Shown here in pieces: positions 13,277 to 35,131 of a DNA stretch of 64,000 nucleotides. Each line of letters begins with the position of its first letter. Position 1 is the first letter of the stretch. Below the pieces are notes generated by a model. The model did not search any database and was not told the DNA's origin. It saw only the letters and a program-made list of their open reading frames with translations. The stretch comes from Nitrosopumilaceae archaeon (GTDB lineage: Archaea > Thermoproteota > Nitrososphaeria > Nitrososphaerales > Nitrosopumilaceae): positions 14,277-78,276 of the forward strand of contig CBDBCR010000004.1 in NCBI GenBank assembly GCA_965203465.1. Reading direction: 5' to 3'. Position numbers and translations under genes: made by a program.

Positions 13277-13355
13277 TAGAGTCCATGCGTAAACGCGCCG
13301 GTTGGGGTTTTCTAGGCACGGATCTGCGAGATTTGGGAGATTACGCATAACCTCT
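13277..13355. mobile_element. 79-bp MITE-like element, copy 1
   Basis: Imperfect terminal inverted repeats TAGAGTCCATGCGTAA / TTACGCATAACCTCT; 77/79 identical to 19941-20019; a third TIR-like end at 13241-13258. Confidence 0.7.
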
Positions 13356-13453: not shown

Positions 13454-15553
13454 TCATGATTTTGTAGTGCCTGCTGGAACAAACAACCCCAATCCGAAGT
13501 GCTTTCCGTATCCTAGCGCCAACGGACCTGTGAACGGCTCTTTGAAATTTATCTCTAGAGAACGCCCGATGCTGGTTATGGGGCCTTTGCCGTTGCGCAT
13601 TGTTTTGAATCGCCGGGTTGGCGTTTTTATGTTCCTGTGTGATACAACTACCAATTCTGAGTCGACGCGTACGCTTTCGACATCTCTTGACATCTCTTTC
13701 TCTATTTGGTCTTTGATTCCAGTTTTCTTTTTCATGTGCCACGGGGTGTAATACGGCGTTACCGACTTCCATTTTTGCGATCTTGCAAACAGGCTGCACT
13801 TCTGACCAAGTTCGACCATCCCGTCGAATCTATTGAAATGCATACGCATTCTCATACTGTTGTCGAACATGTCTGTGATCCCGCTTAGGGCCTGCATTTC
13901 TACACGCCCAAACCCGTATCTGGCGTACACCGCAACGTGGTCGATAAACCCGTCTGCATCTGCATCGTACGGCAACCACAACGCGTGACTGTGGTTGAGT
14001 GGCTCGCTGCTGTGGCCAGATATGGTGGCCGGTATGTTGGATCTCCCGAACAGCCGCTGAAACTTCGACATTGCGGCACGCCTCATAAGATCTGCCACAT
14101 CCACAGTCTTCTCAATCGGGGGGCGATCTCCGAGCAGCGTAAAATATGCCGCTTTGGGCATTTCTCTCGGTGCAAACAAACCGAAACCGGCCTTCTTGTT
14201 ATTCCCTATGGCGAACGCCCCCTTTCTGGCCGCCTTGAATTCTATCTCCAAGTGGGCGGTTCTGCCTGTTGCCCTGGGCAGGCCGTTCCAATAAGGCTCT
14301 TTTCTAGAATCCACAAACGCCACATCGCCTGTTATGCCGTCCTTGCCCAGTGCAGCTATCGCGGCTTCGGCAACATCCGAGCGCAACTCCCGGTGAGCCC
14401 TGACGCGCAAGGCCTTGTCTGCCGCCGTCTTGTCTTTAGCAACGTTTTGTTCCTTGCCGACGTTCAGATCTACCGGCATTACCGAACACCACCGTCTGGA
14501 CCATCCTTTGTACATCTTTTGCACTGGATCGTTGGAATCTTCGAGGCGTATCTGGTACTCGACATCTCCTATCTTTACAAATTGGCCCGATACGTGGGAG
14601 AGAAACCTGTCCCTGACGCCTTCGTCAGTCTTGTGAGAGATCAGAAAAGCTATGCGCCGCACGATGCCGTCTGAATGTTGGCCCAATGTGGGCATGACGA
14701 CCGCGTCTGCATGCAGCATGCTGTTTCCGTCGTACTCGTTTTTCATCCTGTAAAGCTGCTCGACTGCCAGGGGAATCTGGCTGCTGGTCAAGGCCCCTCT
14801 GTTTCCAGCAGCATCGAAAATCCTAAACACGTAGATGTCGGGAGATGGCGTGTGGGTTCTGTACCTCTGAGTGTGATATTTTCTGATCGGGGACGGCTTG
14901 TAAAAACTGTCTCCTGACACCCTGCTTTCAAACTCGCCATGGTGCCTTCTGGCGTCTTCTAGAAGGCCCTCGGCAGGGACTTCGATTCTTTCGCTCCCCT
15001 GCTCGTCTATCACGTAGCACTGCCCGTCGGCTGCGTGTGGGGATTCACGCACGCTGCCGTGCACTGCAACGGGGTCTATTCCCCATCCGAGGACCGGGAT
15101 CTCTTTCGCGAGCTCGCACAGAGTTTCAATGCTATCTGGCTCCTCGTGTGGAATCTCCCAAACATACGTTGCCGTCTCTGTTATGTAGGGCTTCATTGTC
15201 TTGCCGGTGGTCATAGTTTTTTCATCCTTGGGCTCCTTGCCTTCTGCGTACGCCTTGCTGATCACGTCGCCGTCGTTGTTGGGCACGAATATGGTGTATT
15301 CGCACCCCTTGCAACGGTGTGCGTAGATCTTGGGGGGCCCAAATTTCTCGAAAAATTTCAGAGCTTTGTCGCCCCTGTGGAACTCGACCCTTCCAGAGTT
15401 CTGGTGCAGCGCCGCGACGAACGCCAAGAAAAGCCTCCTGGGCGACGGCGGCCATTCCTTCCCGTGGTACCGTCCGAGCAGAAATCTGACTTGGAATGCG
15501 AGATATCTTGGTTTCTTAGCCATTTGCAGCTCTTGCGACATCGATTCCACCAC
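13454..15553 (-). CDS. csb2: Type I-G Cas5/Cas6 fusion Csb2, long form (cassette A)
   Basis: GRYHGKEWPPSPRRLF N-terminus; WKSVTP; C-terminal GPLALGYGKHFGLGLF G-loop. Confidence 0.9.
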   Translation of the reverse strand: MVESMSQELQMAKKPRYLAFQVRFLLGRYHGKEWPPSPRRLFLAFVAALHQNSGRVEFHRGDKALKFFEKFGPPKIYAHRCKGCEYTIFVPNNDGDVISKAYAEGKEPKDEKTMTTGKTMKPYITETATYVWEIPHEEPDSIETLCELAKEIPVLGWGIDPVAVHGSVRESPHAADGQCYVIDEQGSERIEVPAEGLLEDARRHHGEFESRVSGDSFYKPSPIRKYHTQRYRTHTPSPDIYVFRIFDAAGNRGALTSSQIPLAVEQLYRMKNEYDGNSMLHADAVVMPTLGQHSDGIVRRIAFLISHKTDEGVRDRFLSHVSGQFVKIGDVEYQIRLEDSNDPVQKMYKGWSRRWCSVMPVDLNVGKEQNVAKDKTAADKALRVRAHRELRSDVAEAAIAALGKDGITGDVAFVDSRKEPYWNGLPRATGRTAHLEIEFKAARKGAFAIGNNKKAGFGLFAPREMPKAAYFTLLGDRPPIEKTVDVADLMRRAAMSKFQRLFGRSNIPATISGHSSEPLNHSHALWLPYDADADGFIDHVAVYARYGFGRVEMQALSGITDMFDNSMRMRMHFNRFDGMVELGQKCSLFARSQKWKSVTPYYTPWHMKKKTGIKDQIEKEMSRDVESVRVDSELVVVSHRNIKTPTRRFKTMRNGKGPITSIGRSLEINFKEPFTGPLALGYGKHFGLGLFVPAGTTKS

Positions 15554-15563
15554 ACTCAGACAA

Positions 15564-16613
15564 TCATTCGTCTCCGTCTGCCTTTTTCTTATTTTTCTTT
15601 GACATCTTTTCTTTTATCGCCTTTTCTGCCTTTTTCTTCTCAAACCCTGCGCTTCTGTCTTTGCCCACGCCAAAGCCTTCCGCTGCCTTTTGCGCCCATT
15701 TTAGAACCTCGTCATGATCGAAGCTCACATCCTCGCGCTTCCCGTCAGGATACACAAGATTCCACTCTGGATCCCCTTTCTCTGGATCGCGTACGAGAAG
15801 GCACCCTTGTCTTAGATCCCATTCGCGTATAGAGGATGCCGCCACCATGGCTAGGCCCAAAACGTACCTCTGTAGGGCCTCTTGCTCGTTGTCGGATCTG
15901 ATCTTCCTCAGAGCCGCAAAGTTCACCACGACATCTCTTCGTATGGGGCCGCGGGCTATGATGCCTCCGTGCGTGCCGACTGCCGGAGCTTCGTTAAAGC
16001 CGATCTCCGACCTGGCGTCTTTTTCCTTTTTGTCTTTTGCCTCGTTTAGCAGATCCTCGTCGGTGTATTTTATCGGCGGAAAGTATTGTGCGGATCTGCT
16101 CAGCTCGTCCACATCGTACGCCCGTATTGTGGACGAGACTATGCGGGGAACCTTTACTTGCGTGTTCCTGGAATCCCACAGTCCAAACACCAGCGATGTG
16201 GGGGCTATCTTGGCAACGGCCGACGCGTTTCCTGCTTTTAGAGATTTCAGGGCTTCCGTAAGATCCTCGCTGATCGTAGAATGCCTGAGCAGGGCGTCCG
16301 CTGCCCTGTGGCCCACCTCGCACAAGTTCACCGCGTAGTCTGCCGCACTTATCACTACTTGGGGGACAAGCTTGCTGTACGGTTCTTTCATAAAAACGGG
16401 CTCCATCCTGTTCGCCTGCGAGCCTACGCTGTCTACCAAACAAGTCTGCGTCCCGTCTTTCATGGCGTCTATGCAATATGGGCTGTTGGAATCTTTCCCG
16501 CCAGCGAATGTGGGGGGAAAGAACGGCGAATCCTTGCCTTCTACTGGAATCAAGTACTCCCTCAAGACTAGCGCAGAAGCGTCTCCGCTTATCCACTTGT
16601 CCGGCTCTAGCAT
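15564..16613 (-). CDS. cas7: Type I-G Cas7 (Csb1) (cassette A)
   Basis: FFPPTF, DSVGSQANRME, HRAADA, PTSLVFGLWDS, LRQGCLL. Confidence 0.92.
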   Translation of the reverse strand: MLEPDKWISGDASALVLREYLIPVEGKDSPFFPPTFAGGKDSNSPYCIDAMKDGTQTCLVDSVGSQANRMEPVFMKEPYSKLVPQVVISAADYAVNLCEVGHRAADALLRHSTISEDLTEALKSLKAGNASAVAKIAPTSLVFGLWDSRNTQVKVPRIVSSTIRAYDVDELSRSAQYFPPIKYTDEDLLNEAKDKKEKDARSEIGFNEAPAVGTHGGIIARGPIRRDVVVNFAALRKIRSDNEQEALQRYVLGLAMVAASSIREWDLRQGCLLVRDPEKGDPEWNLVYPDGKREDVSFDHDEVLKWAQKAAEGFGVGKDRSAGFEKKKAEKAIKEKMSKKNKKKADGDE

Positions 16614-17350
16614 GGCGTGTCTGCCTCGGACGCTTCTATAAATGTCTTTTTTTGACCGCTCTTTCTAGTACGGGCCCTGAAGTGGCGCGTGCCTGGAAAC
16701 TCCAGAGCGCCTGCCGCTGCGGCCTTGGCTACGATGTTTGGCAGCGGCACCGCCCACGCATTGTAGCAATACTCTTCCCGTGATCTTCTGCTGTTGTGCC
16801 AGCCGTATGCCTGTACCCCCAAGTACGCGAAAAACTCCACCACCGGAAACGATCTCCGCTTCATCTTCTGCTCGTTTAGAGAAAACCCCACATCCAGAGT
16901 GTTCCACGAGGTGTGTGTATCAAACCCCGACGGCACATCGATCACGCTGCTGCCCCACAACTCTTTTGCGTCGCTCGTTTCGTGCACCTTCATGTGTTCT
17001 ATCCACCTGCCTACCACGTCGTGGGATTTTTCCTGTCCTGCAAACAGCTTTATTTCCGGCCTGTTGTCAAAATGTTCCCAGAAATCTAGACGCGTGTTTA
17101 TTTTTCCTCCAAGGTGAATGGGAGATGCGCTTTCATCGCCGGCCGGTATGTCGATGCGGGACGCCTCGTTGACTATTGCCTGTATGGGATCTTTTTGTTC
17201 TGTTTCCAACACGAATTCGCCTCCGTCAAAACTCCCGCGAACTGCGCCAAGAACGCGATCTACAGCGTGCAGTATGCCACAGCACGCAAAGAAATGACCG
17301 GGATTGAGCAAGTCTACCGGCAATCTGGTCTCGATCGCATTCCCGTTCAT
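16607..17350 (-). CDS. cas8: Type I-G small Cas8-like large subunit (cassette A)
   Basis: VDLLNPGHFFACCG N-terminus, DVGFS, VEFFAYLGVQ; ATGA-coupled to cas3. Confidence 0.8.
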   Translation of the reverse strand: MNGNAIETRLPVDLLNPGHFFACCGILHAVDRVLGAVRGSFDGGEFVLETEQKDPIQAIVNEASRIDIPAGDESASPIHLGGKINTRLDFWEHFDNRPEIKLFAGQEKSHDVVGRWIEHMKVHETSDAKELWGSSVIDVPSGFDTHTSWNTLDVGFSLNEQKMKRRSFPVVEFFAYLGVQAYGWHNSRRSREEYCYNAWAVPLPNIVAKAAAAGALEFPGTRHFRARTRKSGQKKTFIEASEADTPC

Positions 17351-19854
17351 CGTGACTTCCCCACATTGTTTGACGCACTCCAGTCGGCGCCTCTCAAAAG
17401 TCCCTCCAACCACGCCAGCCCGAACGCGCCGAATCTTTTTTGCAAGTTTGCGTATCGCTCGGCCACGCGGGTTAGTATCTGATCGTCACCGTCCAAGTTC
17501 ATGGCTTTGTTGTCCCTTGCCTCTGGTCTGAAGCACGGCCTTGCCCATCCGTGGTGGGAGGCCACCAGGTGGAGGACCAGATCAGCTTCATCGCCAAGTT
17601 CGTCGCGGGGCATTTTCTCAAGCATGTGCGTGGAGCACAGTTCATGCCGAAACCTGCCCATGTTGAGTGGACTCTTCCGGCTAGCGGTTTTTGCAAGGGG
17701 CATTTTGTCGGGTTCTACATGCATCCACGCTTGCCACTTCTCGTTTTCTTTTCCTTTGTCGTGGTACCCCGCCGCTGTTATTATGGCATTTTTCACGGCC
17801 TCTGGCATATTTGAGTACGGCTTTACCATGTCTGCAGCTTTTTCTTTCACGTCTTTTAGATGATCGTCCAGATTCTGTTCTACCAACGTGCGCGACTGCT
17901 GTCCAATCCTCCTTGCATAGTATCGGATCTTTGTATCTGGAGAGTCCTCGTCTGGCTTTGTGATGTCGATCTCGTACACTAGCTTCATTTTAGAGCTGTC
18001 GAGCCATTTGCCGATCTCACGCACTTTCGGCAAACCCCCGATCTGTTTTATCGCATCCTGCGCATCGTCCATCTTCTCTACCAAAACTCTGCACCGGGAA
18101 TACCCGCTCAGACCTTCGGTGTCTTGTCCGTTGCTCGAAATGTCTGCGACATCTCTCACTGGCGAGGTTTCTCCAGGACTCAGGAACCCGCGCTTGTCGA
18201 GGCCGCCAAAATCCGTGGGCAACACAACAGTCGAGAAATACAGATCTTCTTTTTTGACATCTGACGTTGTCTGCTTTTTACACTGCCCGTCGTCTTTTAT
18301 TACCATTATCTGCCCGCTTCTACTTTTTAGAAACTTGTACACTTCGTCAGTGTACTCGCGTAGCGTCTCTTTGGGCAGGATCCTGTAGTTGTCGAACACA
18401 TCACCAGCATCATCATCATTTTTCAAGTACTTTGCGTCTTCTCTCCAACACACGTACGTGTCTGGTCTGGCCTTGTCTTCGTCCCCACGTAGCCAAAACC
18501 TCACATGAGGCCTTGACCGGTATTCTCTATATATGGAAGTCATGGACCATGAATCCAGCAAGTCTTTTGTCAATGGCTGGGTTTTAGGCTTGGACGCAAA
18601 CATCCTGTCCATGTCGCCTTCGCCCAGACCTTCCAACACCTTGCTTAGGGCCTGCGGACTTCCATCGTGCATATTACGTTCAACCAGAAACTTGACCGTC
18701 TCTGCCGCAGATCCTTTTTCGTTGCCGTTATAGATTAGAGTGGCGGTGGCTTTTCGGTCTTTCCCTCCAGTGCGATTGAGGCGCCCAAGCCTCTGTATGA
18801 GAGAATCCAGCGTTGTGGCATCGCATACCATGTGATCCGCATCAAAGTCTGCGCCCACCTCGCCGGCGGATGTGGCCACCATGTACGATGGCTCTCCGCC
18901 GTGTTTGCCTAGGAAAGCCTTGTATGCTTTTTTCTCGGACAACCTGTCTCGTTCAAACCCGCGTATAGTGCCGGTCAAAACCACCACCTCGTGTTCTTTC
19001 TCTAGGTTTTTTGATATTTTTAGGGCGTCTTTGGGACTCCTTACGTAGATCATGACTCTTCCAGGTTTTGACTCTGCGTGTCTTGCTATCTCGTCTGCCA
19101 CGTTGACTTGCGGGGGAATTTTCTTCAACTCCAGCTTCTTCACCGCCCTATACCTGTCTTCCACTACAGCGTTGTGCATGTCGTCGCTCCCCAACCTTAT
19201 GATGTTGTTGCCCTTTCTGTGTTGTGTAGCTGACATGAAGAGTGTTCTTGGTGGGTACAGACGATCGGCGTTTTTCACGTTGGATATGTCCTCCACATCT
19301 CTAAGAAGATTTTCCATGGCTGGCGATAGATGTGTCTCGTCCAGAACTAGGAGCGAATCCTGTCCCAAGAGTCCGGCGTAAAAAGATCTGACCTTTCTTC
19401 CTACTCCGTACCCAGAGAACAAGAGGCGGCTTCCTATCATGTCTATGGTGCCTATTATTATGGCCGGCATGTGTGGCTCTTCCAGCCACTTTCTGTTGTC
19501 TTCCAGGCCTCCGCCTCCTCGGAGTTTGCTTATGTTCAGGCTCCCGATCTTGGATCTGTAGTTGTTGTCTGCTTCTATTTTTTTGCGCAGTTTGTCTGCT
19601 TCATCGGAAGCCTGATCAACTATCACGCGCCTATCCACAATATAGACAAGTCTTGTAGGCACGTGATCATGTCCGCGAATTCTTGTATGTGTTAAGGCAA
19701 GCATCCATATGTGCATGATCGATGTTTTGCCCAGACCTGTGGGAATGTCCATCGTATCGGGAATGTCGCCTTTTACGAGCATGTCGAACATCCTTTGTTG
19801 CCATGGGTATGGCGCATGCCCGGTTATGGCCTCGAAATCCTCGGCAAAGCCCAT
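17347..19854 (-). CDS. cas3: Type I-G Cas3 helicase with C-terminal HD nuclease (cassette A)
   Basis: PYPWQ, PTGLGKT, VDRRVIVDQ, DETHL, QRLGRLNR; C-terminal HDKGK...RHE...HHG...ADW. Confidence 0.95.
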   Translation of the reverse strand: MGFAEDFEAITGHAPYPWQQRMFDMLVKGDIPDTMDIPTGLGKTSIMHIWMLALTHTRIRGHDHVPTRLVYIVDRRVIVDQASDEADKLRKKIEADNNYRSKIGSLNISKLRGGGGLEDNRKWLEEPHMPAIIIGTIDMIGSRLLFSGYGVGRKVRSFYAGLLGQDSLLVLDETHLSPAMENLLRDVEDISNVKNADRLYPPRTLFMSATQHRKGNNIIRLGSDDMHNAVVEDRYRAVKKLELKKIPPQVNVADEIARHAESKPGRVMIYVRSPKDALKISKNLEKEHEVVVLTGTIRGFERDRLSEKKAYKAFLGKHGGEPSYMVATSAGEVGADFDADHMVCDATTLDSLIQRLGRLNRTGGKDRKATATLIYNGNEKGSAAETVKFLVERNMHDGSPQALSKVLEGLGEGDMDRMFASKPKTQPLTKDLLDSWSMTSIYREYRSRPHVRFWLRGDEDKARPDTYVCWREDAKYLKNDDDAGDVFDNYRILPKETLREYTDEVYKFLKSRSGQIMVIKDDGQCKKQTTSDVKKEDLYFSTVVLPTDFGGLDKRGFLSPGETSPVRDVADISSNGQDTEGLSGYSRCRVLVEKMDDAQDAIKQIGGLPKVREIGKWLDSSKMKLVYEIDITKPDEDSPDTKIRYYARRIGQQSRTLVEQNLDDHLKDVKEKAADMVKPYSNMPEAVKNAIITAAGYHDKGKENEKWQAWMHVEPDKMPLAKTASRKSPLNMGRFRHELCSTHMLEKMPRDELGDEADLVLHLVASHHGWARPCFRPEARDNKAMNLDGDDQILTRVAERYANLQKRFGAFGLAWLEGLLRGADWSASNNVGKSR

Positions 19855-19940
19855 CACCAATCTGATTCTGGCCCATTTATTATATTTTTACTGGGATTGG
19901 GCGCTTTGCTGATGCGAACTATGGGGTCGTGCTTTCCTAT

Positions 19941-20019
19941 TAGAGTCTATGCGTAAACGCGCCGGTTGGGGTTTTCTAGGCACGGATCTGCGAGATTCGG
20001 GAGATTACGCATAACCTCT
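19941..20019. mobile_element. 79-bp MITE-like element, copy 2
   Basis: TAGAGTCTATGCGTAA...TTACGCATAACCTCT(A), 14/16 inverted match; same orientation as copy 1. Confidence 0.7.
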
Positions 20020-20047
20020 ATTAAACGACACAGATCGTTTGGCACGC

Positions 20048-20298
20048 CATACACCGGAGTCGCAACTTAATAGTTGCGGAAGGAGGCACGACCTCCGGAA
20101 AAAAGCCCTGGGCTAGGGCGCTTCAATGGGGCCGCAACCTGATAGTTGCGGAATGGTGCACTCGGCCAATCACGTGGCCAAGGAACTTCAGCAGCTTCAA
20201 TGGGGCCGCAACTTGATAGTTGCGGACGCCGCCCGGCACTGTGCCAATTCCGGCACCGAGCGGCTTCAATGGGGCCGTAGCATAACAGCTGCGGAAGA
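20048..20298 (-). CRISPR. Mini CRISPR array: 4 degenerate repeats, 3 spacers
   Basis: Repeats at ~20048-20083 (partial), 20120-20155, 20194-20229, 20263-20298 related to the main repeat; spacers 36, 38, 33 bp. Confidence 0.9.
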
Positions 20299-20614
20299 AG
20301 CGTGCCAACGATGTCAATTCAGTGTCCGTTATCGGCTTGTAAGTGTTCACGTCATCCAGACCCGTTTGCCAGTACTTTGGCATCTCTGCTATATATTCTG
20401 ACTCAGGTTCCACCTGGTATGCACTCACCCCCTCCAGCTCGATCGTGCCTAGCGATTAGATCTCGTGTGTGAGCCCGTGCCTAGCAGAACGAGATTCGTG
20501 GGGGGAGCTGAGTGCATACTTCCACCTGTCGTGACGCGCGTGAAAAAAACACACTCTTGGTCAAGAGAGTGTGTGAAAACCTGACGCAGGCCGACGTGTA
20601 AGTTTTCTGCGTCG

Positions 20615-21610
20615 TTATCGGACGCCGAGCCCGTGCCCCGCAGGCGTTCCTGCGCCCACCGTGCGAAATTTTCCGTCGCTAAATATTCGCGCCACGATCA
20701 CATCTAGCGCACCGCAGTCGCGCATAGATGCGGCAAGTCGTGCTATGTTTTTTGCACGATCATCTGTGTCTGCTACGGGATCATTGCTCGCGCGCTTGTG
20801 CCTTTGTGGGGGGTATTGCGCATCAGCAATCTGCCTGAGCTCTTTCATCCGCAAAAGAACGCGCACTGCGTCCAGCGGCAACGGCTTCTCCCAGATCGGC
20901 CAAGCTACCGCCTCTCCGGTCGATCCGCATCCCGTGGTGCTGAGCCCCCCGCGTTCCGGCGCCGACGTGAACTCTGATATTCCGAGTGCGATAAGCGGCT
21001 CCGCCCCGGTCACGGGCGCTCTGAACCCCACGGGGTCGGATGCGCGCAGGGCATGCTTCCGTCGCTCGCGCCAGTCAAGTCTAAATGGCCGCAGGCTCGA
21101 GCTGCCTTGCTGCTTTTCTTCCGGACGATCCCATGTCTTGAACAGTCCTCTTCGTATGAAGTCTGCCATGCCTTCCTCGCGCATGCCCAAGGCGGCGTCG
21201 AAATCCCTGCCAAAGTACTGTTGCCCTGCCCCGAGTGTAAGGCACAAGGCACCCGGCCTCATCGTGCCGTCTTTGGTAAGGGCGCCGTCCGACAACAGGG
21301 ACGCCACAACATCGCGGTCTGTTCTAGACAGAATGCTTGGAAGCTCTGAAGGCTCGATGCCGTTGACGTTCTTTTTTCCGATCTGCATTTTCTTGCCCAG
21401 CGAGGAAATGCCGCTGGCCGCGGCATCGCACACCGCATCGACGCTCTGATCCCCGCACGTTAGCAGGGACGCCTTGCCTTGCGACCATTTCGACTCGGGC
21501 TTCCAACAGGGCACGGACTTTTCAAGAGCCCTGAGCAACCCGATCAGCGCCAGCACTGCTGCCAGACTGTCCTGCTGTAGGCCGCGGAGCGCGATCTCTT
21601 GGCGACTCAC
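20615..21610 (-). CDS. Type I-G Cas8g/Csb3-like subunit (cassette B)
   Basis: IALRGLQQDSLAAVLALIGLLRAL N-terminus, GAGQQYF, WPIWEKPL; overlaps the cas3 stop. Confidence 0.75.
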   Translation of the reverse strand: MSRQEIALRGLQQDSLAAVLALIGLLRALEKSVPCWKPESKWSQGKASLLTCGDQSVDAVCDAAASGISSLGKKMQIGKKNVNGIEPSELPSILSRTDRDVVASLLSDGALTKDGTMRPGALCLTLGAGQQYFGRDFDAALGMREEGMADFIRRGLFKTWDRPEEKQQGSSSLRPFRLDWRERRKHALRASDPVGFRAPVTGAEPLIALGISEFTSAPERGGLSTTGCGSTGEAVAWPIWEKPLPLDAVRVLLRMKELRQIADAQYPPQRHKRASNDPVADTDDRAKNIARLAASMRDCGALDVIVARIFSDGKFRTVGAGTPAGHGLGVR

Positions 21611-24486
21611 AGTTCCTCCCTCCCCGCCGCTCGCGATAGTCCGCGTGCTGCCTTCGACTCGGCACCGAGCCCGCCATTGATCCGTTCCTCTGCCGACCTG
21701 CGACCGTCAGCAAGCCGGAGCACGGCCTCCATATGTGCAAGCTTCCACGGCCCGTGCCTGGCATATACGCGCACGGCAAGACTGCACCACCACGGATCTA
21801 CGCCTTCTGTCCACATGGCTGGCGGAAAAACGGGCCTGCCGTACCCGTGGTGCGTGCCAATCAACCACAGGACCAGGTCTTCATCGGCTGCATCCTTTAC
21901 CTCCTTTTCTTCCCTTGCAGACAGCACCGAGTGCCATTCGTGCCTGTATCCGTTGGGCATGCGAGCCAGGCGCCTGCACTCGCGCATCTCCTGCCGGTCC
22001 GTAGGGCCGGCGCTCTTTGCAATGATGTCCATCCCTTCGACTCTTTCCTGAGTCGTGCCGTGCAGCACCGCCTGCATGATCTTCTCCCGCTTACCTATGT
22101 CGTGGAACTTCGCCGCGATCCGTACTGCCGCAGCGTCGTCCTCGGACAGCCCGGACTTTCTGGCAAATTCCTCGGCCGTCTTCATGACCCCCGCCAGATG
22201 CTCGTCGAGCGTGACCGTTCCAGTCCGGTCAATCCTTCCGTCCCAGCCGCGGCTGTAGTCCGCCACCAGGCCTGCCGCGTCCTTCGATATGTATTCCGTG
22301 GCGTTGCGGCAAAGATCTGGTTCGAGCGCCGTTTTGAACGCTACCCCGTACACTGTCCCGTCGCGCATCCTGACGACGTCGGTCTTGCCCCCGCGCCCTG
22401 CAACCTGGCGCCACGCATCGGGCAGGCCCCCTATCCCGGCAACCACCCTTCCGACCTTTGCATTCCTGCTCTCGTCCGCGACAGCGCCTCTCAGATCGTT
22501 CCACGCAGCGTCGCTTGCGACGTCCTTGACAGGCCCTCCGTCGATCCAGATGGCCATCTTGCCGCGCTGGACCAGGTGAGCCTGCAGGCTAATGTCCTCT
22601 GCGGGGCACGACCCTTCAGCCCCAGTCCAGCCGTACTCGTCGCAGCCGCCGCGTGACGACGGAACCACGATCGTGTCGCCGGGCCGAATGTCGCCGGCGC
22701 CAACCTCTTGGATCCTGCCCCGGTTGCCCACCCTTACTGCCATTGCGGGCGTGTTCTGGCCTCCGCCTCGTGCGACTCGCTGGCCCTCGATGTCTGCCAG
22801 ATCGTCGACGGAGGGATCGGACTTCCGTGCGCCGCTTGCGGCGCCGTCTGTGACATCTCTGCCGTGCAGTCCTTCGAGCCACTTTCGTACGTGCCAGACC
22901 GGCATCTCGATCGCTTCCAGCGCGGATGGAGGGATCAGATTCGCGGACATGCCCACTTCGTCTAGATCTTCGCCCTGCCGCCACACCACGCGGACGTCGG
23001 CGGGGCTAGTGCTCTTGTCCGGCAGTCCGTGAAGGAACAAGGCCGCTTCAGGATCCGGCGATCCCGGCGGCCTCGTTTTGTGCCACGCCCAGAGGTACGC
23101 GGGAAGCAGGGTGACGGATGCCCTTTTGGGCGACGACATCTCTTCGATCATGCCGTCAGGCGGCATTTGGAACGATTTTACGCCAAAATCCACCATTTTG
23201 CTGTCGCCGGCGGCTTTTACAAGCCATGACCACGTCGCCTTGGTGGCCGTGCCGTACACGGGATCGTCGGCTTTTTCGCCCACGTCCCGATCGTCGGCCA
23301 CTATGACGGCGGCAGAATCGTCTTCGTTGCCGATCCTGTTTAGCCTCCCGAATCTCTGCAGCAGTGAGTCGAGCGGAGCCGCCTGCGTGAGTAGCGCGTC
23401 AAACGTAATGTCGGCGCCGGCTTCTATGCACTGCGTCGACACAGTGACGGATTTCATCCGCGTGTCCGAATCTGGGCGGAGACTCTCAGATATGCGCGCA
23501 GTCAGAATGTCCTTGCACAGGGGCCGGGATCTGCCTGTGAGCAGGCGAGCTTCGTAGCCGAGTCTTTCTGCGTCGGCGCGCACGTTGTTGAACACCTCTC
23601 TTGCCGCGCCGACCGTGTTGACTACGACGCCTATGCGACGCATGTTCCCCTCGGACATGATCGTCTTGGCGTGTCTTGCAAGCGCGGCAGGCGATCTGCG
23701 CCGGCCCGCAACCTCCAGTGTGGCAGTCTTGGACTTGGACATGCGCTCGCCCATCTCGTCTATCATGGCGGGCTTTTGGTCTGGATTTGGAAACGCCCCG
23801 TTTGCCCCGGCGCGCAGCGTCGCGCTCATCTGCACCACGCGTCCTTGAGTCCCCCACCCCCTCTCGTCCCGCAGGTCTTTAGTCGACTGCAAAAGCCGCA
23901 TGAATGGCGCGGACAGGTGGGCCTCGTCGAGTATGTAGAGCGTGTCGGTTCCAAGTAGCCCTGCATGCACCGGCCTCATCTTCCAAGACACGCCGTACCC
24001 TCGGAACAGCAGCCTTGAGCCCACTTGGTCTATAGTGGACAGCACGATGGTCGGATCGGACGGCGACCCGTTCCACCCAGAGTCCCGAGGCATGCCTCCC
24101 CGGAGCCTCTTTACGGTGAGCGGATCCCCCGACGACAGGCTTCTCAATGCGTCTCCGGCAGCTCTGGCGGCCCCGCTCCCGCGCCCCCCGTTCAGCGCCT
24201 CGGCGATGACCTTGGCGTGACCGTACGAATCGTCCACCGACACTCGGCGATCTACCACCATGGCGACCCTGACCGGGGCGGTCCTGTTGGCCGATCTTGC
24301 TTGGCATGCCAAGTGCCACACGGCCACGTCAAGCACGGATGTCTTGCCAGACGCGGTGGGCATCGATATGGCTTCCGGCCACCCGCCGTCCATCACCCTC
24401 CTTGCAAGGGCCGACTGCCACTCGAACGGATCCCTGCCGTGTATGTCGTGGTAGAGTGCCTTGAACGAGATCGTCCCGTGGTCCAC
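21607..24486 (-). CDS. cas3: Type I-G Cas3 with C-terminal HD domain (cassette B)
   Basis: PFEWQ, PTASGKT, VDRR, DEAHL, QRFGRLNR, HDIGK, RHE, HHG, LRLAD; GTG start 24486. Confidence 0.95.
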   Translation of the reverse strand: MDHGTISFKALYHDIHGRDPFEWQSALARRVMDGGWPEAISMPTASGKTSVLDVAVWHLACQARSANRTAPVRVAMVVDRRVSVDDSYGHAKVIAEALNGGRGSGAARAAGDALRSLSSGDPLTVKRLRGGMPRDSGWNGSPSDPTIVLSTIDQVGSRLLFRGYGVSWKMRPVHAGLLGTDTLYILDEAHLSAPFMRLLQSTKDLRDERGWGTQGRVVQMSATLRAGANGAFPNPDQKPAMIDEMGERMSKSKTATLEVAGRRRSPAALARHAKTIMSEGNMRRIGVVVNTVGAAREVFNNVRADAERLGYEARLLTGRSRPLCKDILTARISESLRPDSDTRMKSVTVSTQCIEAGADITFDALLTQAAPLDSLLQRFGRLNRIGNEDDSAAVIVADDRDVGEKADDPVYGTATKATWSWLVKAAGDSKMVDFGVKSFQMPPDGMIEEMSSPKRASVTLLPAYLWAWHKTRPPGSPDPEAALFLHGLPDKSTSPADVRVVWRQGEDLDEVGMSANLIPPSALEAIEMPVWHVRKWLEGLHGRDVTDGAASGARKSDPSVDDLADIEGQRVARGGGQNTPAMAVRVGNRGRIQEVGAGDIRPGDTIVVPSSRGGCDEYGWTGAEGSCPAEDISLQAHLVQRGKMAIWIDGGPVKDVASDAAWNDLRGAVADESRNAKVGRVVAGIGGLPDAWRQVAGRGGKTDVVRMRDGTVYGVAFKTALEPDLCRNATEYISKDAAGLVADYSRGWDGRIDRTGTVTLDEHLAGVMKTAEEFARKSGLSEDDAAAVRIAAKFHDIGKREKIMQAVLHGTTQERVEGMDIIAKSAGPTDRQEMRECRRLARMPNGYRHEWHSVLSAREEKEVKDAADEDLVLWLIGTHHGYGRPVFPPAMWTEGVDPWWCSLAVRVYARHGPWKLAHMEAVLRLADGRRSAEERINGGLGAESKAARGLSRAAGREEL

Positions 24487-24490
24487 GGCC

Positions 24491-25897
24491 CTACGACTCC
24501 TCGGCCATACACAGACCGAGTCCGCGATACCTGCCTGCCCCGACCATGACGGGCCCCGGCACGGGCACGCCGAACTCGATTCTGGCGTGCCAGAGCCCGC
24601 CGCGACCCGCATGCTTGACCCACTTTGCGGCGTGCAGCACGCCGTAAGACATGCCTGCGCGTGAGACCTCGACCGACACTGGCCTGGGCAGGCCCACCCT
24701 TTCAACGCTGTCTGCTATGCCTATCTCCTGGCCGACGCCGGCCTTGGCGTACCTGTCGACTGCGATCGGGGTGACCGTAACCCACGCCTTTGACGATCTC
24801 GTGTACCTGTCGGTCTGGAGGCTGAGCCTGTCATCTGCATGTCCGAGCTGTAGGCGCAGACCGCCGGGCAATTCGATCTCAAACCCGGGCTCTGCGACCT
24901 TTCCTACAGCCCTGTCTATGACTCTCTGTTCGGGAGATTCGGCCGACACGTCAGACGGCATTACCACGGAAAGACCCAAGAGCCCGCCGTCGGAGTGACG
25001 CCAGCCTACGTCGAGCATTGGGACTATGGCCATGTGCGATCGCTGCGACGGGCCGCCGCCGGGGGCGATGCCGGATACGACTTCCGGCACGGGCGACGCG
25101 GCCCCGCCAATTATGACCGAGCGCACTGCTTTGGCAACCAGCGGAAACGACTCTGGCGCCGGCGCGTCTTCCATTACCGCCAGAACCGACCACGAATTCC
25201 ATATGGGTGACGGATGCCCCGCGCCTGCGTCGCCGGCCAGCATTGTGTAGCGAGGCCAGGCATCGGGCGGCCTGGGATGCCACACGACGCCCTCTTTTTC
25301 GGCGCGCTCGTACCCCTCAAGCAGGTCGTCGAGCCTCCCACTGGACGGGCACCGTATTCGTACGTTGCCGCTGTCGTCCGGCACGAACCGCGTGCGGCCA
25401 TGCGTCTTCCTGCTCGTCCTAACCGACATCCGCACCAGCGACGACGAATGGCCGAGGCGCGGGACACATGCGGCAAGATCTTCCAGCTCGCGCACAACTT
25501 CGGGAGGCGGTTCGGAATCCCACGACATGGTGACGGTTTGATCGTCGTCTGGCAGAACGACTGCTGGAAACCACCTTGGTTTTCGCGTGACGATTGGCAA
25601 ACCCGGCCCCATGTCGCCCATGTATCGCCCTTCGTTGCTTTTGTCTTGGACGGGCACATAGAATTCGCGCACGTCCCTCCGGCTGTGCGGCGGGCATGCG
25701 ACTTCGGGCGGCTTTTGAGACTCCATCCATCGTAGCGCGTCTTTGCCACGGCCGCCGGGCCTTGACGACATGGCGTCGACTAGTGCAGAGAAGAGCCTAT
25801 CTGGGCTCGGGGGCCACTCGGCCGTTTTGTCGTCGTTTATCTCTGCCGCGTAGCACACTCCCGAAAGGTACTCTACTTCGATCGAGAGCATTGGCAT
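24491..25897 (-). CDS. csb2: Type I-G Csb2 (Cas5/6) (cassette B)
   Basis: EWPPSPDRLFSALV, LGHSSSLV, WVTVTP, GPVMVGAGRYRGLGLC. Confidence 0.92.
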   Translation of the reverse strand: MPMLSIEVEYLSGVCYAAEINDDKTAEWPPSPDRLFSALVDAMSSRPGGRGKDALRWMESQKPPEVACPPHSRRDVREFYVPVQDKSNEGRYMGDMGPGLPIVTRKPRWFPAVVLPDDDQTVTMSWDSEPPPEVVRELEDLAACVPRLGHSSSLVRMSVRTSRKTHGRTRFVPDDSGNVRIRCPSSGRLDDLLEGYERAEKEGVVWHPRPPDAWPRYTMLAGDAGAGHPSPIWNSWSVLAVMEDAPAPESFPLVAKAVRSVIIGGAASPVPEVVSGIAPGGGPSQRSHMAIVPMLDVGWRHSDGGLLGLSVVMPSDVSAESPEQRVIDRAVGKVAEPGFEIELPGGLRLQLGHADDRLSLQTDRYTRSSKAWVTVTPIAVDRYAKAGVGQEIGIADSVERVGLPRPVSVEVSRAGMSYGVLHAAKWVKHAGRGGLWHARIEFGVPVPGPVMVGAGRYRGLGLCMAEES

Positions 25898-27087
25898 CAG
25901 TCCGCACTAGCAGTTACGCCTACTTTGTCTAGCATGCGTTGACGCGACTTTTTGATGAGGTCTACCAGGCTCTTGCTGGGCCTTATGACCGTCGGCTCTT
26001 TTTTCCAAGCGTGCGGTTCTAGCTCCTTGGACGATTCTTCCAGCCATCCAACCACCTCCATCACGTCAAACTTGAACGGCTTCGTCGTGCCGTCTGCCTC
26101 TACCAACTCCCACTCGGCCCCTCCGTCTTGAGTTAGATCGCACCTAGATCTGAGCGAAGAGTACGTTGGCTCGCCTTCGGCACCCAAGATCGCAAGAGAC
26201 GCCAAGGCGGCTCTGGCCGCACTTTCGTCAGCTTTTTGAAAGCGGAGCCTGCGCAATCCTGCAAGCGTGATCACCGTTGTTTGTTTCGCATGATCTACGG
26301 TGACCCCCAGGCTCGGGATTTCTTTACTTACTATGCTCCCGTACCCGTACTCTGACGGCCTTTTGCCGTTTTCGTCTAGGCGCATCTCTCCGCCTTTGAT
26401 GGATATCTTTACATCCTTGCCAACGTTGAACACGTCCGTCTTTGATGCGGGGCTTTTGCATTCCTGCACATTGATGCCTACGATCTCTGACGTTATGCAA
26501 CGCTGGAACCTTGCGGTAAGCGTGCCTCCCCAGTATGACTTCCACGCCCCGTACACCAAACTCGTGGTGCTGTACTTTAGTATGGGGGTTGCGTTACGCG
26601 TTGTAGCTGATGCGATCTCGCCGCCTATGGACGTTTTCGGAAACTGGCTTCCGTCCAACACTGAGTCCCGTATTGCGGCGTCAAACACTCTGTGTGGCAG
26701 CTCCATGGAGGTCACTACGCCAATGTCGGCGATGTCCGCTTCGCCCGTAAAATCCACTGCGACTTTTGGGATCGCCGGTATGCGGTCTTTTGCTATCGAA
26801 GTCATGCCTTTGCCGTCAGTCGATTTTGTTCGGTACTCGCCATTCGTGAGATTCACCAGAGATTCCTCCATTCTGGCCGCCTGCGACTGCACTGAGTCAA
26901 GCAGCACGCACTTTACGTTTTCGTCGTTGATGCGCCGAGTCTCGTAAGAGTGGGCGCCCCATTTTTTCTTTTCTGGATGCGGGTACGTTGGAGGGGCCAG
27001 ATAGTCGCCCTTTCCGCCGGCTGGCTGTAGCCTGCGGACGCGCCTCAGGGCGCTGGCTGTCTCTACCGCCTCTGCAAGCAGTTTCAT
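25897..27087 (-). CDS. cas7: Type I-G Cas7 (Csb1) (cassette B)
   Basis: LQPAGGKGD..PPTY, LLDSVQSQA.RME, PHRVFDA, LRSRCDL. Confidence 0.92.
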   Translation of the reverse strand: MKLLAEAVETASALRRVRRLQPAGGKGDYLAPPTYPHPEKKKWGAHSYETRRINDENVKCVLLDSVQSQAARMEESLVNLTNGEYRTKSTDGKGMTSIAKDRIPAIPKVAVDFTGEADIADIGVVTSMELPHRVFDAAIRDSVLDGSQFPKTSIGGEIASATTRNATPILKYSTTSLVYGAWKSYWGGTLTARFQRCITSEIVGINVQECKSPASKTDVFNVGKDVKISIKGGEMRLDENGKRPSEYGYGSIVSKEIPSLGVTVDHAKQTTVITLAGLRRLRFQKADESAARAALASLAILGAEGEPTYSSLRSRCDLTQDGGAEWELVEADGTTKPFKFDVMEVVGWLEESSKELEPHAWKKEPTVIRPSKSLVDLIKKSRQRMLDKVGVTASAD

Positions 27088-30835: not shown

Positions 30836-33800
30836 GCTTCAATGGGGCCGCAACTTGATAGTTGCGGAAGGTACGACAAGCTCTACGCGACGAGCGAGCA
30901 GGTCTTGCTTCAATGGGGCCGCAACTTGATAGTTGCGGAAGGTGTAAACAAAACAGCCGCTAGCCGACCTGCCCGGGGCTTCAATGGGGCCGCAACTTGA
31001 TAGTTGCGGAAGGCTTGGTGAACAATGCTGGCTTCTTGAACCTGTCCCCGGCTTCAATGGGGCCGCAACTTGATAGTTGCGGAAGGCCGGCCCCGGATCG
31101 AAGTCCCGGGCAAAGCCCGTGTGCTTCAATGGGGCCGCAACTTGATAGTTGCGGAAGGGGCATGGCGATAAGAATCAGGCGGCGGTACTGGAAGCTTCAA
31201 TGGGGCCGCAACTTGATAGTTGCGGAAGGTCAACACGACTTCCGTGGCCGAGGTCTCGGAAGTCAGCTTCAATGGGGCCGCAACTTGATAGTTGCGGAAG
31301 GAGCTCGAGAACCCCGGCGAGGGGACGACCCCGTGGGCTTCAATGGGGCCGCAACTTGATAGTTGCGGAAGGTCGCCGGCCTGTTCTGGTGGCTCAGCAG
31401 CGCGACCGACGCTTCAATGGGGCCGCAACTTGATAGTTGCGGAAGGTTTATAACGCTGTTATGAAATAGCCGAAGGGTATATAGCTTCAATGGGGCCGCA
31501 ACTTGATAGTTGCGGAAGGTGTAAACAAAACAGCCGCTAGCCGACCTGCCCGGGGCTTCAATGGGGCCGCAACTTGATAGTTGCGGAAGGCTTGGTGAAC
31601 AATGCTGGCTTCTTGAACCTGTCCCCGGCTTCAATGGGGCCGCAACTTGATAGTTGCGGAAGGTGCCAGATAACAGACAACAGCGGGCGCGTTTTTGCAG
31701 CTTCAATGGGGCCGCAACTTGATAGTTGCGGAAGGACGATCCAAGGCGCGACCGACGGCAGCAGGTCGGCAGCTTCAATGGGGCCGCAACTTGATAGTTG
31801 CGGAAGGGCTCCACCTCTCCCTCGGCGTCGCGCGCAATGCGGACGCTTCAATGGGGCCGCAACTTGATAGTTGCGGAAGGTGCTCGCATAAATGCCACGA
31901 AAAAGCCCGAGCCCGAGAGCTTCAATGGGGCCGCAACTTGATAGTTGCGGAAGGACGATCACGAGTATAACAACAATCAGCCCGTAAGGCTTCAATGGGG
32001 CCGCAACTTGATAGTTGCGGAAGGGTTGGCCCAAGATGAGGTCTTTGCGGACCTAAAGCCGCTTCAATGGGGCCGCAACTTGATAGTTGCGGAAGGTGAA
32101 ATTTTTGCTACGGACACTCCTGCATTGCAGGCGCTTCAATGGGGCCGCAACTTGATAGTTGCGGAAGGACGTACCACGACGTGACCTATTCGTACGAGGA
32201 CGGGTAGCTTCAATGGGGCCGCAACTTGATAGTTGCGGAAGGCATGGTGCGGGGTATGCTCTCAATGCTCGGGGGCGGGCTTCAATGGGGCCGCAACTTG
32301 ATAGTTGCGGAAGGCATAGTGCTGCCCGTAAGCGTCTTGAAAATCAAGGCTTCAATGGGGCCGCAACTTGATAGTTGCGGAAGGTCCGCAAGACCGGCTT
32401 GCTTCCGTCCTTCGATTGCCGCTTCAATGGGGCCGCAACTTGATAGTTGCGGAAGGAACTCGCCGGAGGGCCGCGACCTGTACGAGCGGTACGCTTCAAT
32501 GGGGCCGCAACTTGATAGTTGCGGAAGGAAAAAGTCGGGCGAAACGACAAAGTACAGGCTGCTAGCTTCAATGGGGCCGCAACTTGATAGTTGCGGAAGG
32601 GCGGCGTTCTGGGAAGAATACGTGGGCGGATACAACGCTTCAATGGGGCCGCAACTTGATAGTTGCGGAAGGCCTAGCCGATGTCAATGACATCAGCGAA
32701 GCGATGGAAGCTTCAATGGGGCCGCAACTTGATAGTTGCGGAAGGGTTGCCACCACACCCACAAAGCAAAACCGATCAAGGGGCTTCAATGGGGCCGCAA
32801 CTTGATAGTTGCGGAAGGGCGATCTATCAGCTCGTCACCGGCGCGGTGCCCGAGGCTTCAATGGGGCCGCAACTTGATAGTTGCGGAAGGTTTACCGGCC
32901 GCGACAAGTTCGGCAAGGCGTTCGCGCTTCAATGGGGCCGCAACTTGATAGTTGCGGAAGGACCACCTTGATCGAACCGCCGTGCTCGGCGGCCCACGCT
33001 TCAATGGGGCCGCAACTTGATAGTTGCGGAAGGGTTTCCCATGGCCCGATAAGGCCAATGAGGGTTATATGCTTCAATGGGGCCGCAACTTGATAGTTGC
33101 GGAAGGCCTTATACCGTCCATTTTTTCGGCGACGCCGAGATGGTGGCTTCAATGGGGCCGCAACTTGATAGTTGCGGAAGGGTTAATCGAGAGATCCAAA
33201 CGACTCAAGCGCACCTGCTTCAATGGGGCCGCAACTTGATAGTTGCGGAAGGGCGCGCCCCCAGATTCGCGGCCACGGCCCGCTTGTAGCTTCAATGGGG
33301 CCGCAACTTGATAGTTGCGGAAGGACCCAGAGCCCGTGCAGGTCTTCCCGCGTGTTTGACGCTTCAATGGGGCCGCAACTTGATAGTTGCGGAAGGCTAA
33401 CCATAGGCCTAAGGCATAAATACCCCTAGGTGCTTCAATGGGGCCGCAACTTGATAGTTGCGGAAGGGTTGGCGGGCAATTTGACGGACGCAGAGTTGTT
33501 AGAGCTTCAATGGGGCCGCAACTTGATAGTTGCGGAAGGAGATCCTCAAAGTCCGCAAAGTAGGCGATATTCTGGGCTTCAATGGGGCCGCAACTTGATA
33601 GTTGCGGAAGGGTTGGCCCCGGCCGCCGTGCCCAGGCCGTACCGTATCGCTTCAATGGGGCCGCAACTTGATAGTTGCGGAAGGCAATGGCATGCCCAAA
33701 ACCGCGACGCACGAAAGGGCGCTTCAATGGGGCCGCAACTTGATAGTTGCGGAAGGGGTGATCCAGAATGAGTTTGAGCATAATAAGACCAAGCTTCAAT

Positions 33801-34677: not shown

Positions 34678-34846
34678 CCTGCCCGGGCGCCTGAATCCGC
34701 TCTGGTCGGTGCGGAATTTCCCGGCAGGCGGCATACTGTGCGCGGTTTCTGCACGCGCGCCTGCATCGGCATGCGGGCGGACACTTCCGTATATTAACAA
34801 ACTGCGAGCGCCTCAGCCTGCGCGCCGCAACCCACAGCCGCTCGCG
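34678..34846 (-). promoter_or_regulatory. CRISPR leader
   Basis: Between cas2 stop and the first repeat in transcription sense; TATA-like TTAATATA on the minus strand at ~34790-34797. Confidence 0.65.
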
Positions 34847-35131
34847 TCATATTATGCGCGCCGGCTCGCGCGCGTGCCTCTCCATCCGGGAGCCAACGAA
34901 CTCTATCCTACCGTCGCCGTCCGAGCCCATGTCGGCCACCATCACCCGGTCGGCCGACATGTCTATCTGCTCCGCCAAGTCGGCCCGCAGCAGGGCCAGC
35001 TCCTTGCGGCTCAGATCGCACAGAAACACCGAATACTGGGCGGGCTCGCCGTACCCGAGCATCTTTTTGTGGACGCGCTGCAGGCGGCCAGGCTCCGTCA
35101 CGTCGTAGCAGACGAGGTACGTGCGCCTCAC
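34847..35131 (-). CDS. cas2: CRISPR-associated endonuclease Cas2
   Basis: YLVCYDV...QYSVFLCDL. Confidence 0.95.
   Translation of the reverse strand: MRRTYLVCYDVTEPGRLQRVHKKMLGYGEPAQYSVFLCDLSRKELALLRADLAEQIDMSADRVMVADMGSDGDGRIEFVGSRMERHAREPARII

Follow-up and report, generated by a model that had tools for sequence, protein, structure and literature searches.

Can one CRISPR adaptation module and one family of repeats serve two complete effector modules of the same subtype? The question is raised by a stretch of 64,000 nucleotides (nt) from the genome of a Nitrosopumilaceae archaeon (NCBI GenBank assembly GCA_965203465.1, contig CBDBCR010000004.1, positions 14,277 to 78,276), which we refer to as the window and in which two different type I-G Cascade-Cas3 cassettes, here termed A and B, stand in tandem behind a single cas4g/cas1g-cas2 module and its array. 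Comparison of this locus with those of related archaea leads us to favor, with some reserve, the reading that one pool of CRISPR RNAs (crRNAs) would serve both effectors; among the explanations that we weighed, it is the best supported. The host is an ammonia oxidizer, as the same genome contains an archaeal amoA gene (383 bits). The genome measures 2.26 Mb in 4 contigs, has a G+C content of 65.0%, and is 96.9% complete with 0.19% contamination; the sequencing runs that contain DNA of the locus are labeled 'sponge metagenome.'

Two type I-G effector modules behind one adaptation module

Along the minus strand, the locus runs from the cas4g/cas1g fusion gene through cas2, the leader and the main array to cassette B, a hairpin, a short trailer-side array (the mini-array) and cassette A; the sole member of the locus on the plus strand, a type IIG restriction-methylase gene, lies between the main array and cassette B (Table 1). 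All eight effector genes are intact open reading frames (ORFs) on the minus strand. Seven of them exceed the curated NCBI cut-off of their I-G family, the exception being the small large-subunit gene of cassette A; NCBIfam scores are given throughout as bits against the curated cut-off of the family. Cassette A contains the csb2 signature gene, the Cas7g/Csb1 backbone and a Cas3g helicase with a C-terminal HD domain, cassette B contains csb2, cas7g, and cas3g, and the Cas4-Cas1 fusion and the Cas2 protein of the locus are those of type I-G (NF049935, Cas2g). Family assignments of this kind support both cassettes as putatively complete type I-G effector modules of two different recognized kinds, A with a small GSU0052-like Cas8g2 gene after cas3, and B with the order cas7-csb2-cas3 followed by a Cas3-extension/Cas8g-like gene. 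The original prediction, which had been made from the letters of the window, saw two complete and intact cassettes that differ in gene order, sequence and base composition, and matched their orders to two recognized I-G variants; the NCBIfam and PADLOC models, the protein identities and the G+C values bear it out on each of these points.

The two cassettes share 26% identity in Cas3g, 25% in Cas7g and 23% in Csb2, and their large subunits gave no significant alignment with each other (E 0.98). The GKT, DExH, and HD motifs are kept in both Cas3g proteins in the A/B alignment. The G+C content amounts to 51-54% in the genes of A and 55-64% in those of B, both set against the genome average given above. 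Two housekeeping genes have a G+C content at third codon positions (GC3) of 87-90%, compared with 83-87% for cas4/1 and cas2, 63-74% for cassette B, 58-63% for cassette A, and 61% for the restriction gene; the latter, with an overall G+C content of 51%, stands between the array trailer and cassette B and converges with the array transcript. The ORF of the cassette B cas3g gene is open to position 24705, and the GTG codon at 24486 is its likely true start. An A/T-rich, TATA-like stretch precedes cas3g of cassette A, and a hairpin followed by a run of T residues separates cassette B from the mini-array.

A single Cas1 match was obtained genome-wide, and only two cas3g genes score above the cut-off, both of them inside the window. 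A k-mer scan of the genome found no array of another repeat family, and the repeat core has 56 matches, none of them outside the window. The 36-nt repeat opens with four bases, followed by a 7-bp stem that encloses a 6-nt loop, the tetranucleotide CCCC and then ATTGAAGC, which is the repeat geometry of type I-G (36 nt, 7-bp stem, 4-nt linker, 8-nt 5' handle). We oriented the array by the ATTGAAGC handle at the 3' end of the repeat and by the published description of a type I-G system, as far as the available part of that paper gives it (Shangguan et al., 2022; PMC9638904). In a set of 14 repeats, the stem is paired to 94.5% and compensatory changes occur at three of its seven pairs, with a covariation score that was reached by none of 500 shuffles; an Rfam search gave no match in the window at gathering thresholds.

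The mini-array has the stem of the main array in two of its three repeats and, in one of those two, the same loop as well. It ends in a decayed terminal repeat about 106 nt before cas3g of cassette A, once an inserted element is discounted. The mini-array between the cassettes is an addition to the single repeat family that the original prediction had seen, and a looser scan added decayed remnants of this family on contig C1 of the genome. These comprise five relic repeats with shortened loops (C1:325407-325716), which lie 8 kb from a chromosomal self-target described below, and two units of two relic repeats each, in the vicinity of C1:357769 and C1:715167; they may represent old arrays, or else mini-arrays that belong to an integrated element. 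Within the main array, a 180-nt block of two spacers is exactly duplicated (30907-31086 and 31484-31663).

Table 1. Coordinates of the CRISPR-Cas locus in the window, listed in minus-strand order, with the family matches of each feature.
Feature	Position	Strand	Remarks
cas4g/cas1g fusion	35136..36779	-	NF049935 686.8 bits, cut-off 560
cas2 (Cas2g)	34847..35131	-	PADLOC Cas2g E 5.3e-26; TIGR01573 29.8, cut-off 24.5
Leader, 169 nt, cas2 to first repeat	34678..34846	-	A/T-rich TATA-like stretch; putative promoter
Main CRISPR array, 54 repeats of 36 nt	30836..34677	-	Last repeat on the trailer side intact
Type IIG restriction-methylase gene, MmeI-like, 1160 amino acids	27288..30770	+	PADLOC REase_MTase_IIG E 3.6e-47; Pfam N6_Mtase, Eco57I, MmeI_N
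Cassette B cas7g (csb1)	25897..27087	-	TIGR02570 67.7, cut-off 38; PF09617 139.9 bits
Cassette B csb2 (Cas5-Cas6 fusion, 468 amino acids)	24491..25897	-	TIGR02165 248.7, cut-off 45
Cassette B cas3g	21607..24486	-	TIGR02621 664.4, cut-off 400; helicase motifs, C-terminal HD domain
Cassette B fourth gene, Cas8g-like putative large subunit	20615..21610	-	NF049934 Cas3-extension family 91, cut-off 65; PADLOC Cas8g PDLC01514 E 1.4e-34
Dispersed element, 112 nt, MITE-like (miniature inverted-repeat transposable element)	20408..20519	.	4 genome matches; X4 contig skips exactly this element
Trailer mini-array, three repeats and a decayed fourth	20048..20298	-	First repeat is a stem-loop variant
Dispersed element, 81-nt copy of the 79-nt element, between mini-array and cassette A	19937..20017	.	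14 genome matches; skipped by X4 and X5 contigs
Cassette A cas3g	17347..19860	-	TIGR02621 599.8, cut-off 400, full length; HD at residues 664-792
Cassette A small large-subunit gene, Cas8g2-like	16607..17413	-	TIGR04106 95.1 bits, below 125; PADLOC Cas8g E 1.5e-27
Cassette A cas7g (csb1)	15564..16613	-	TIGR02570 143.1, cut-off 38
Cassette A long csb2, 699 amino acids	13454..15553	-	TIGR02165 200.6, cut-off 45
Dispersed element, 79-nt copy, just downstream of cassette A	13277..13355	.	Skipped by X4 and X5 contigs

Effector kinds in related archaea and the extended Csb2 protein

We searched 200 other genomes of the family for cas3g; genomes are numbered with the prefix G, and G000 is that of the window. 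Matches with an E value of 1e-30 or better were found in 18 of the 200, and with G000 included, 16 of 201 family genomes possess a cas3g gene above the cut-off, among them most sampled genomes of four genera. At the level of the class, 19 of 301 genomes passed the cut-off, only two of which lie outside the family. Within the family, type I-G is confined to a minority of genomes but is no rarity. The expectation that it would be uncommon in ammonia oxidizers is only partly borne out.

The loci of 15 other genomes were compared with the proteins of the window by tblastn and a k-mer array finder, and PADLOC was run on three; G063, G140, and G196 were left out, their hits being fragmentary or below the cut-off. 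Three kinds of effector cassettes emerged. Kind A (cas3g, cas8g2, cas7g, long csb2) is present in G061, G071, G043, and G099, in all of which an orthologue of the Cas8g2-like gene (41-47% identical) occupies the same position between cas3g and cas7g. Kind B (cas7g, csb2, cas3g, extension gene) occurs in G014, G041, G071, and G089; more remote versions of it are found in G065 and G154. Kind C (cas7g, csb2, cas3g, and a Csx17 gene of 701 amino acids) is annotated in G041 and, judged by sequence similarity, is probably also present in G016, G052, G109, G134, and G144.

Each of the two kinds found in the window also exists alone. Within the same genus, G061 carries cas4/1, cas2, 148 repeats and then A, and G014 carries cas4/1, cas2, 36 repeats and then B; G099 provides a further A-only locus and G089 a further B-only locus. 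The last 14 nt of the repeat and the base of its stem are common to the arrays of all these relatives, whether they serve A, B, or C, and the identical full stem was found with A only, with B only, with A plus B, and with C. The mini-array begins with a variant repeat that is similar to those of G065 and G144, and this variant may be the trace of a recombination joint. Very long arrays of the common repeat type, with several hundred spacers each, are found in G052 (C1:2941284-2981983, about 40 kb), G089 (C2:2348926-2377622, about 29 kb), and G071 (C1:1072684-1096404, about 24 kb).

Tandem pairs behind a single array recur in the family and were present in three of the 16 genomes above the cut-off. 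Next to G000, these are G071, where cas4/1, cas2, and the array of about 24 kb are followed by A, some 10 kb of unrecognized genes and B, and G041, where cas4/1, cas2, and 135 repeats are followed by C, three unrecognized genes and B; every effector ORF of these two genomes is intact. Two C-like cas3g genes at separate places were found in each of G052 and G144. G028 has two C-like cas3g genes 4 kb apart (L049:12016-19054 and L050:522-3233) without recognized partners; their neighbors, of 898 and 548 amino acids, had no PADLOC match, and no array lies within 40 kb, which could mean that Cas3g has a derived role here without an array.

As a control, we fetched 80 loci with an A-type Cas3g profile, mostly bacterial ones and 42 of them at least 15 kb long. 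Among the unmasked array consensus rows of these loci, 31 of 32 exhibit the same repeat architecture, which makes the repeat type a property of subtype I-G as a whole. This makes one crRNA pool for two I-G effectors mechanistically plausible, and it also renders the shared repeat itself unsurprising. No second cassette was recognized in any of the 80 loci, the flanks of which were limited to 10 kb and in which our archaeal queries may miss distant B and C kinds. The only duplicate among them is found in Limisphaera (L136:2104-9041), where two adjacent cas3g genes stand with a single cas7g and a single csb2.

A quick maximum-likelihood tree of Cas3g was computed from 33 rows and midpoint-rooted, with ORFs that cover less than 45% of the query dropped. 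It recovers clade C with a support of 100, clade B with 99 and an archaeal clade A with 98, the latter being sister to the bacterial Geobacter-type Cas3g proteins (joint support 100). The A-type protein of the window groups with metagenome proteins and then with that of G061 from the same genus; its B-type protein is sister to that of G071, a member of another genus, and not to that of G014 from the same genus. In G061, G071, and G041, the effector cassettes are lower in G+C than the adaptation genes and the flanks, and this drop points to effector modules that turn over faster than the adaptation module. It is an even call whether the older state of the locus was cas4/1, cas2, array, and A. 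If it was, cassette A, which stands beside the decayed trailer repeat, would be the older resident of the genus, and the restriction gene and cassette B would now sit inside what was once one continuous array. In G014, G041, G071, and G099, effector operons begin 64-260 nt after the array trailer. Effector modules likely pass by transfer among relatives.

The Csb2 protein of cassette A is longer than standard Csb2 proteins. In an AlphaFold2 model (40-row alignment; mean confidence, pLDDT, 85; predicted template-modeling score, pTM, 0.71) that was compared with solved structures by VIA-align, residues 14-237 are Cas5-like (Z 8.9-9.6 against Cas5 subunits), residues 235-464 are Cas6-like (3i4h, Z 9.5), and residues 464-697 form a second Cas6-like domain (Cas6b 4z7k, Z 12.5, root-mean-square deviation 3.3 over 182 residues). 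The long Csb2 is accordingly modeled as a Cas5-Cas6-Cas6 fold. The structure 4z7k is also named as the top hit obtained with the C-terminal domain of Thioalkalivibrio sulfidiphilus Csb2 in the available part of the report on that system (PMC9638904). Sequence searches of solved structures with both Csb2 proteins of the window gave nothing at E 0.01. Proteins of 621-709 amino acids that cover 90-100% of Csb2-A form 24 clusters, all of them unnamed metagenome entries, and the next matches are standard Csb2 proteins of 474-544 amino acids, which cover its first 64% only. Over its full length, the added domain can be aligned with the Cas6 half of the G041 Csb2, a C-type protein (28% identity, E 5e-21); with a bacterial Csb2 and with Csb2-B, the alignment is restricted to the last 110-125 residues.

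A histidine near the end of the standard Cas6 domain is present in 14 of 15 standard-length Csb2 proteins and in all seven B-type relatives (His437 in Csb2-B); it may be equivalent, going by position only, to the published catalytic His503. The same histidine is kept in six of 25 long Csb2 proteins, the copy of the window included. Five histidines of the added domain, in turn, are kept in 21-25 of these 25 proteins, a pattern that suggests a working RNA-binding or cutting domain in the long-Csb2 clade. We also considered that the extra Cas6 domain adapts a bacterial-type effector to the resident archaeal repeat, and rejected this idea as unnecessary, since loci that combine an A-type Cas3g with a standard Csb2, most of them bacterial, have this repeat architecture as well (31 of 32 rows, as given above).

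A proposed shared crRNA pool and its rivals

If one crRNA pool serves both cassettes, the locus would operate as follows. Cas4g/Cas1g-Cas2, as the sole adaptation module, would add spacers to one array, the transcript of which would be cut by the Cas6-type domain of Csb2 at a point 4 nt beyond the 7-bp stem, so that the 8-nt handle ATTGAAGC remains. The crRNAs so produced would then be available to two separate Cascade-Cas3 machines, one (B) built from Cas7g, Csb2, Cas3g and the Cas3-extension/Cas8g-like subunit, and the other (A) from Cas3g, the Cas8g2-like subunit, Cas7g and the long Cas5-Cas6-Cas6 Csb2, and both would attack DNA that matches the same spacers. Both cassettes would thereby have to be expressed, both would have to process and load these crRNAs, and their complexes would have to remain unmixed. 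In favor of this reading stand the anatomy of the locus, its intact genes and single adaptation module, its junctions, which are real (see below), the solo use of this repeat by each effector kind in relatives, and the recurrence of tandem pairs. The original prediction had proposed that one crRNA pool may load two effectors; this proposal gains indirect support, since A-only, B-only, and C loci as well as the mostly bacterial controls have the same repeat type.

Several observations weigh against it. The score of the Cas8g2-like gene of cassette A stays below its curated cut-off, and the processing site in A-type Csb2 proteins is uncertain, because so few of the long versions keep the standard histidine. 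The leader-proximal end of the array (34506-34677) is irregular, with a 62-nt spacer followed by a repeat that has a changed 5' end and lies 2 nt before the next one. The seventh spacer from the leader (34186-34220) matches the chromosome of its own host over 35 of 35 positions (C1:333631-333665; 5' protospacer flank GCG), in a gene for a 470-amino-acid protein with a NucS_C nuclease domain; the island on which this gene lies also encodes an HNH endonuclease, a DNA methylase and a DDE transposase. That a perfect self-targeting spacer is tolerated could mean a non-permissive protospacer adjacent motif (PAM), or weak or absent interference. Apart from this self-match, no protospacers outside arrays were found when the spacers were compared with their own genome and the array with the 201 family genomes including G000, a scan that did not extend to viral collections; the comparison with the 201 genomes gave array-to-array matches and one 40-nt match of 88% only. 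These matches did not yield a PAM. The Cas3g tree comes from a quick search and has a midpoint root only, and the low G+C content of both cassettes would equally fit one of them being a recent arrival that is not yet integrated.

The last point belongs to the main rival, which we consider unlikely, although it deserves more weight than the others. It holds that the locus is a snapshot of effector replacement, with one cassette in use and the other newly arrived or outgoing yet still intact, and with no lasting function for two effectors. The GC3 values of both cassettes lie below those of the adaptation and housekeeping genes and the effector cassettes of three relatives show a like depression, which suggests frequent exchange of modules; moreover, A and B have different phylogenetic affinities, and most I-G genomes examined in the family have a single cassette by their array. 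Against replacement speaks the integrity of the paired cassettes, as all eight genes are intact here, and those of A and B in G071 (39-66% identical to their counterparts in the window) and of C and B in G041 are intact as well. A strain that has diverged from that of the window keeps both junctions, and the indels listed for cassette A are in frame. The three pairs are independent combinations with different orders, which argues for retention over transit. A shared locus could also reflect a division of labor, in which each cassette is served by the array piece upstream of it (the main array for B, the mini-array for A) or in which the roles are split between interference and priming. The short distance between trailer and effector operon in the four relatives named above would fit such an arrangement, as would the array piece upstream of each cassette and the distinct stem-loop variant in the first repeat of the mini-array. 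Yet the mini-array has just three spacers and a decayed end, as is typical of an old trailer, and since two of its three repeats have the main stem, the crRNAs cut from the two arrays would be interchangeable. In G071, moreover, there is no separate array for cassette B within 10 kb. We regard a division of labor as improbable.

In support of the idea that two loci of different strains or organisms were joined at shared repeats during assembly, CRISPR repeats and two dispersed elements at the junction break short-read contigs, as seen in run X1. We checked the junctions with Logan contigs of four runs placed on positions 11500-31499. Run X4 is a sponge metagenome from an independent study and contains a strain that is 1-5% diverged from the window. 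Its contig 18 leads from cas3g of cassette A into the mini-array, and its contig 19 from the mini-array into the last gene of cassette B; contig 27 of run X5 runs from the downstream flank through the whole of cassette A into the mini-array. Three indels are listed inside cassette A, each of 3 nt. Since contigs of an independent sponge metagenome bridge both junctions, misassembly, under which the original prediction of a tandem would have fallen, is very unlikely, and the low number of contigs and the low contamination of the genome also speak against it. In X5, the depth is 53 over cassette A, and there is almost no cover over 20838-30842. A single contig joint spans this stretch with a side of 21 nt; it is unreliable, and we did not use it as evidence of a strain without cassette B.

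Taken together, the reading of one crRNA pool for two effectors can be extended to a wider one, which we hold only tentatively. A resident Cas4/Cas1-Cas2 module with a very long array would form a chassis for plug-in effectors of three kinds with unrelated large subunits, which are swapped among relatives and often paired in sponge-associated and related ammonia-oxidizing archaea; the pairs would be loaded together from one crRNA pool and be selected as a hedge against anti-CRISPR proteins or PAM escape. On this wider reading, the CRISPR repeats may act as recombination sites by which a new module lands inside an array.

We considered the direct repeats of about 79 nt that flank cassette A as attachment sites of an inserted cassette, and rejected this candidate in view of 14 matches to the repeat genome-wide; the X4 and X5 contigs, which carry cassette A with both copies precisely missing, rule it out as well. 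The families of about 79 nt and of 112 nt are separate small mobile insertions, and the empty sites in diverged strains reveal recent MITE-like insertions around the cas operons. Further genes in the window adjoin the locus or lie beyond it. The CRISPR locus is adjoined by a series of roughly seven paralogous TPR-repeat genes, which recur at a period of about 1160 nt (about 36900-50000) and are interrupted by a DUF1156/methylase-like gene (41912-44107). A 333-amino-acid HNH protein (51350-52351) matches the model of IscB, an RNA-guided endonuclease, below threshold (53.6 bits against 175). Two genes for non-discriminating aspartyl-tRNA synthetase (aspartate--tRNA(Asn) ligase) lie less than 9 kb apart (53904-55199 and 62916-63995).

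Meaning of the locus and comparison with known systems

Type I-G is the least studied of the type I systems. The locus and its relatives constitute a natural experiment, in which effectors with different large subunits are combined with the same repeat, spacers and Cas4/Cas1, and the PAM ranges, cross-loading and inhibitor sensitivity of the large-subunit variants are thus directly comparable. Their main value lies in a test bed for these variants and in evidence of effector-module turnover on a resident chassis of adaptation genes and array. What is new here are tandem I-G pairs that share an array, and solo A, B, and C kinds on the same repeat type within one archaeal family; among ammonia-oxidizing archaea, type I-G is a recurrent defense, the arrays of which reach up to several hundred repeats. 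If both machines are active, they would provide a redundancy outside the known categories of shared arrays, namely two DNA-targeting machines of one subtype on one array. Two papers on sponge Thaumarchaeota (PMC6697440; PMC9289680) report, in the parts available to us, CRISPR arrays and Cas1, Cas2, Cas3, or Cas4 without a subtype, and the supplementary tables of the former list arCOG counts for Cas3 and Cas4 only. A full-text literature search, the coverage of which leaves out most subscription journals, returned nothing relevant on type I-G or I-U in Thaumarchaeota or Nitrosopumilus, nor on two type I-G systems.

Cassette A has the same gene order as the Geobacter-type I-G system (GSU0051-GSU0054; TIGR02621, TIGR04106, TIGR02570, TIGR02165). 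It differs from this system in its Cas8g2, which scores below the cut-off (95.1 against 125), and in its Csb2, which has 699 amino acids against the 492 positions of the model. In the canonical Geobacter-type order, the adaptation genes and the array are found downstream of the effector genes, whereas in the window they are located upstream of cassette A.

The repeat of the window has exactly the geometry of that of the I-G system of T. sulfidiphilus. According to the available part of the work on this system, its Csb2 is a Cas5-Cas6 fusion that processes the pre-crRNA, cutting 4 nt after the 7-bp stem and leaving an 8-nt handle; its backbone is formed by Cas7, and it has a Cas3 and a large subunit of its own (Shangguan et al., 2022; PMC9638904). 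The same source distinguishes three size variants of Cas8g and leaves open in what way these large-subunit variants diverge in reading the PAM and recruiting Cas3. T. sulfidiphilus possesses one effector module with a large Csx17-type Cas8g, whereas the window has two modules with two other kinds of large subunits, the Csx17 kind being found in relatives; unlike the Csb2 of T. sulfidiphilus, that of cassette A has a second Cas6-like domain. The I-G system of Bifidobacterium is described, in the portions accessible to us, as consisting of Csb1, Csb2, and Csb3 plus Cas3, with a Cascade of three subunits (PMC12915315; bioRxiv 10.1101/2022.08.19.504415). It resembles the locus of the window in its Csb1/Cas7 and Csb2 proteins, in its cas4-cas1 fusion, and in the use of Csb2 as the processing RNase, and differs from it by its single effector module.

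The sharing of crRNAs between effectors has a precedent in Marinomonas, where a type III-B system is reported to use type I-F crRNAs (PMC5576922, as far as available). Vink et al. (2021; PMC8482600) distinguish three categories of compatible arrays for multiple effectors. In the part of their study open to us, the cases with shared repeats and shared acquisition pair only a type I system, which targets DNA, with a type III system, which targets RNA, and the category with two DNA-targeting systems has separate repeats and separate adaptation genes. Compared with the third of these categories, the window likewise has a shared repeat family and a shared adaptation module for two effector modules, but there is no type III partner: both modules are of type I-G and equipped with Cas3g.

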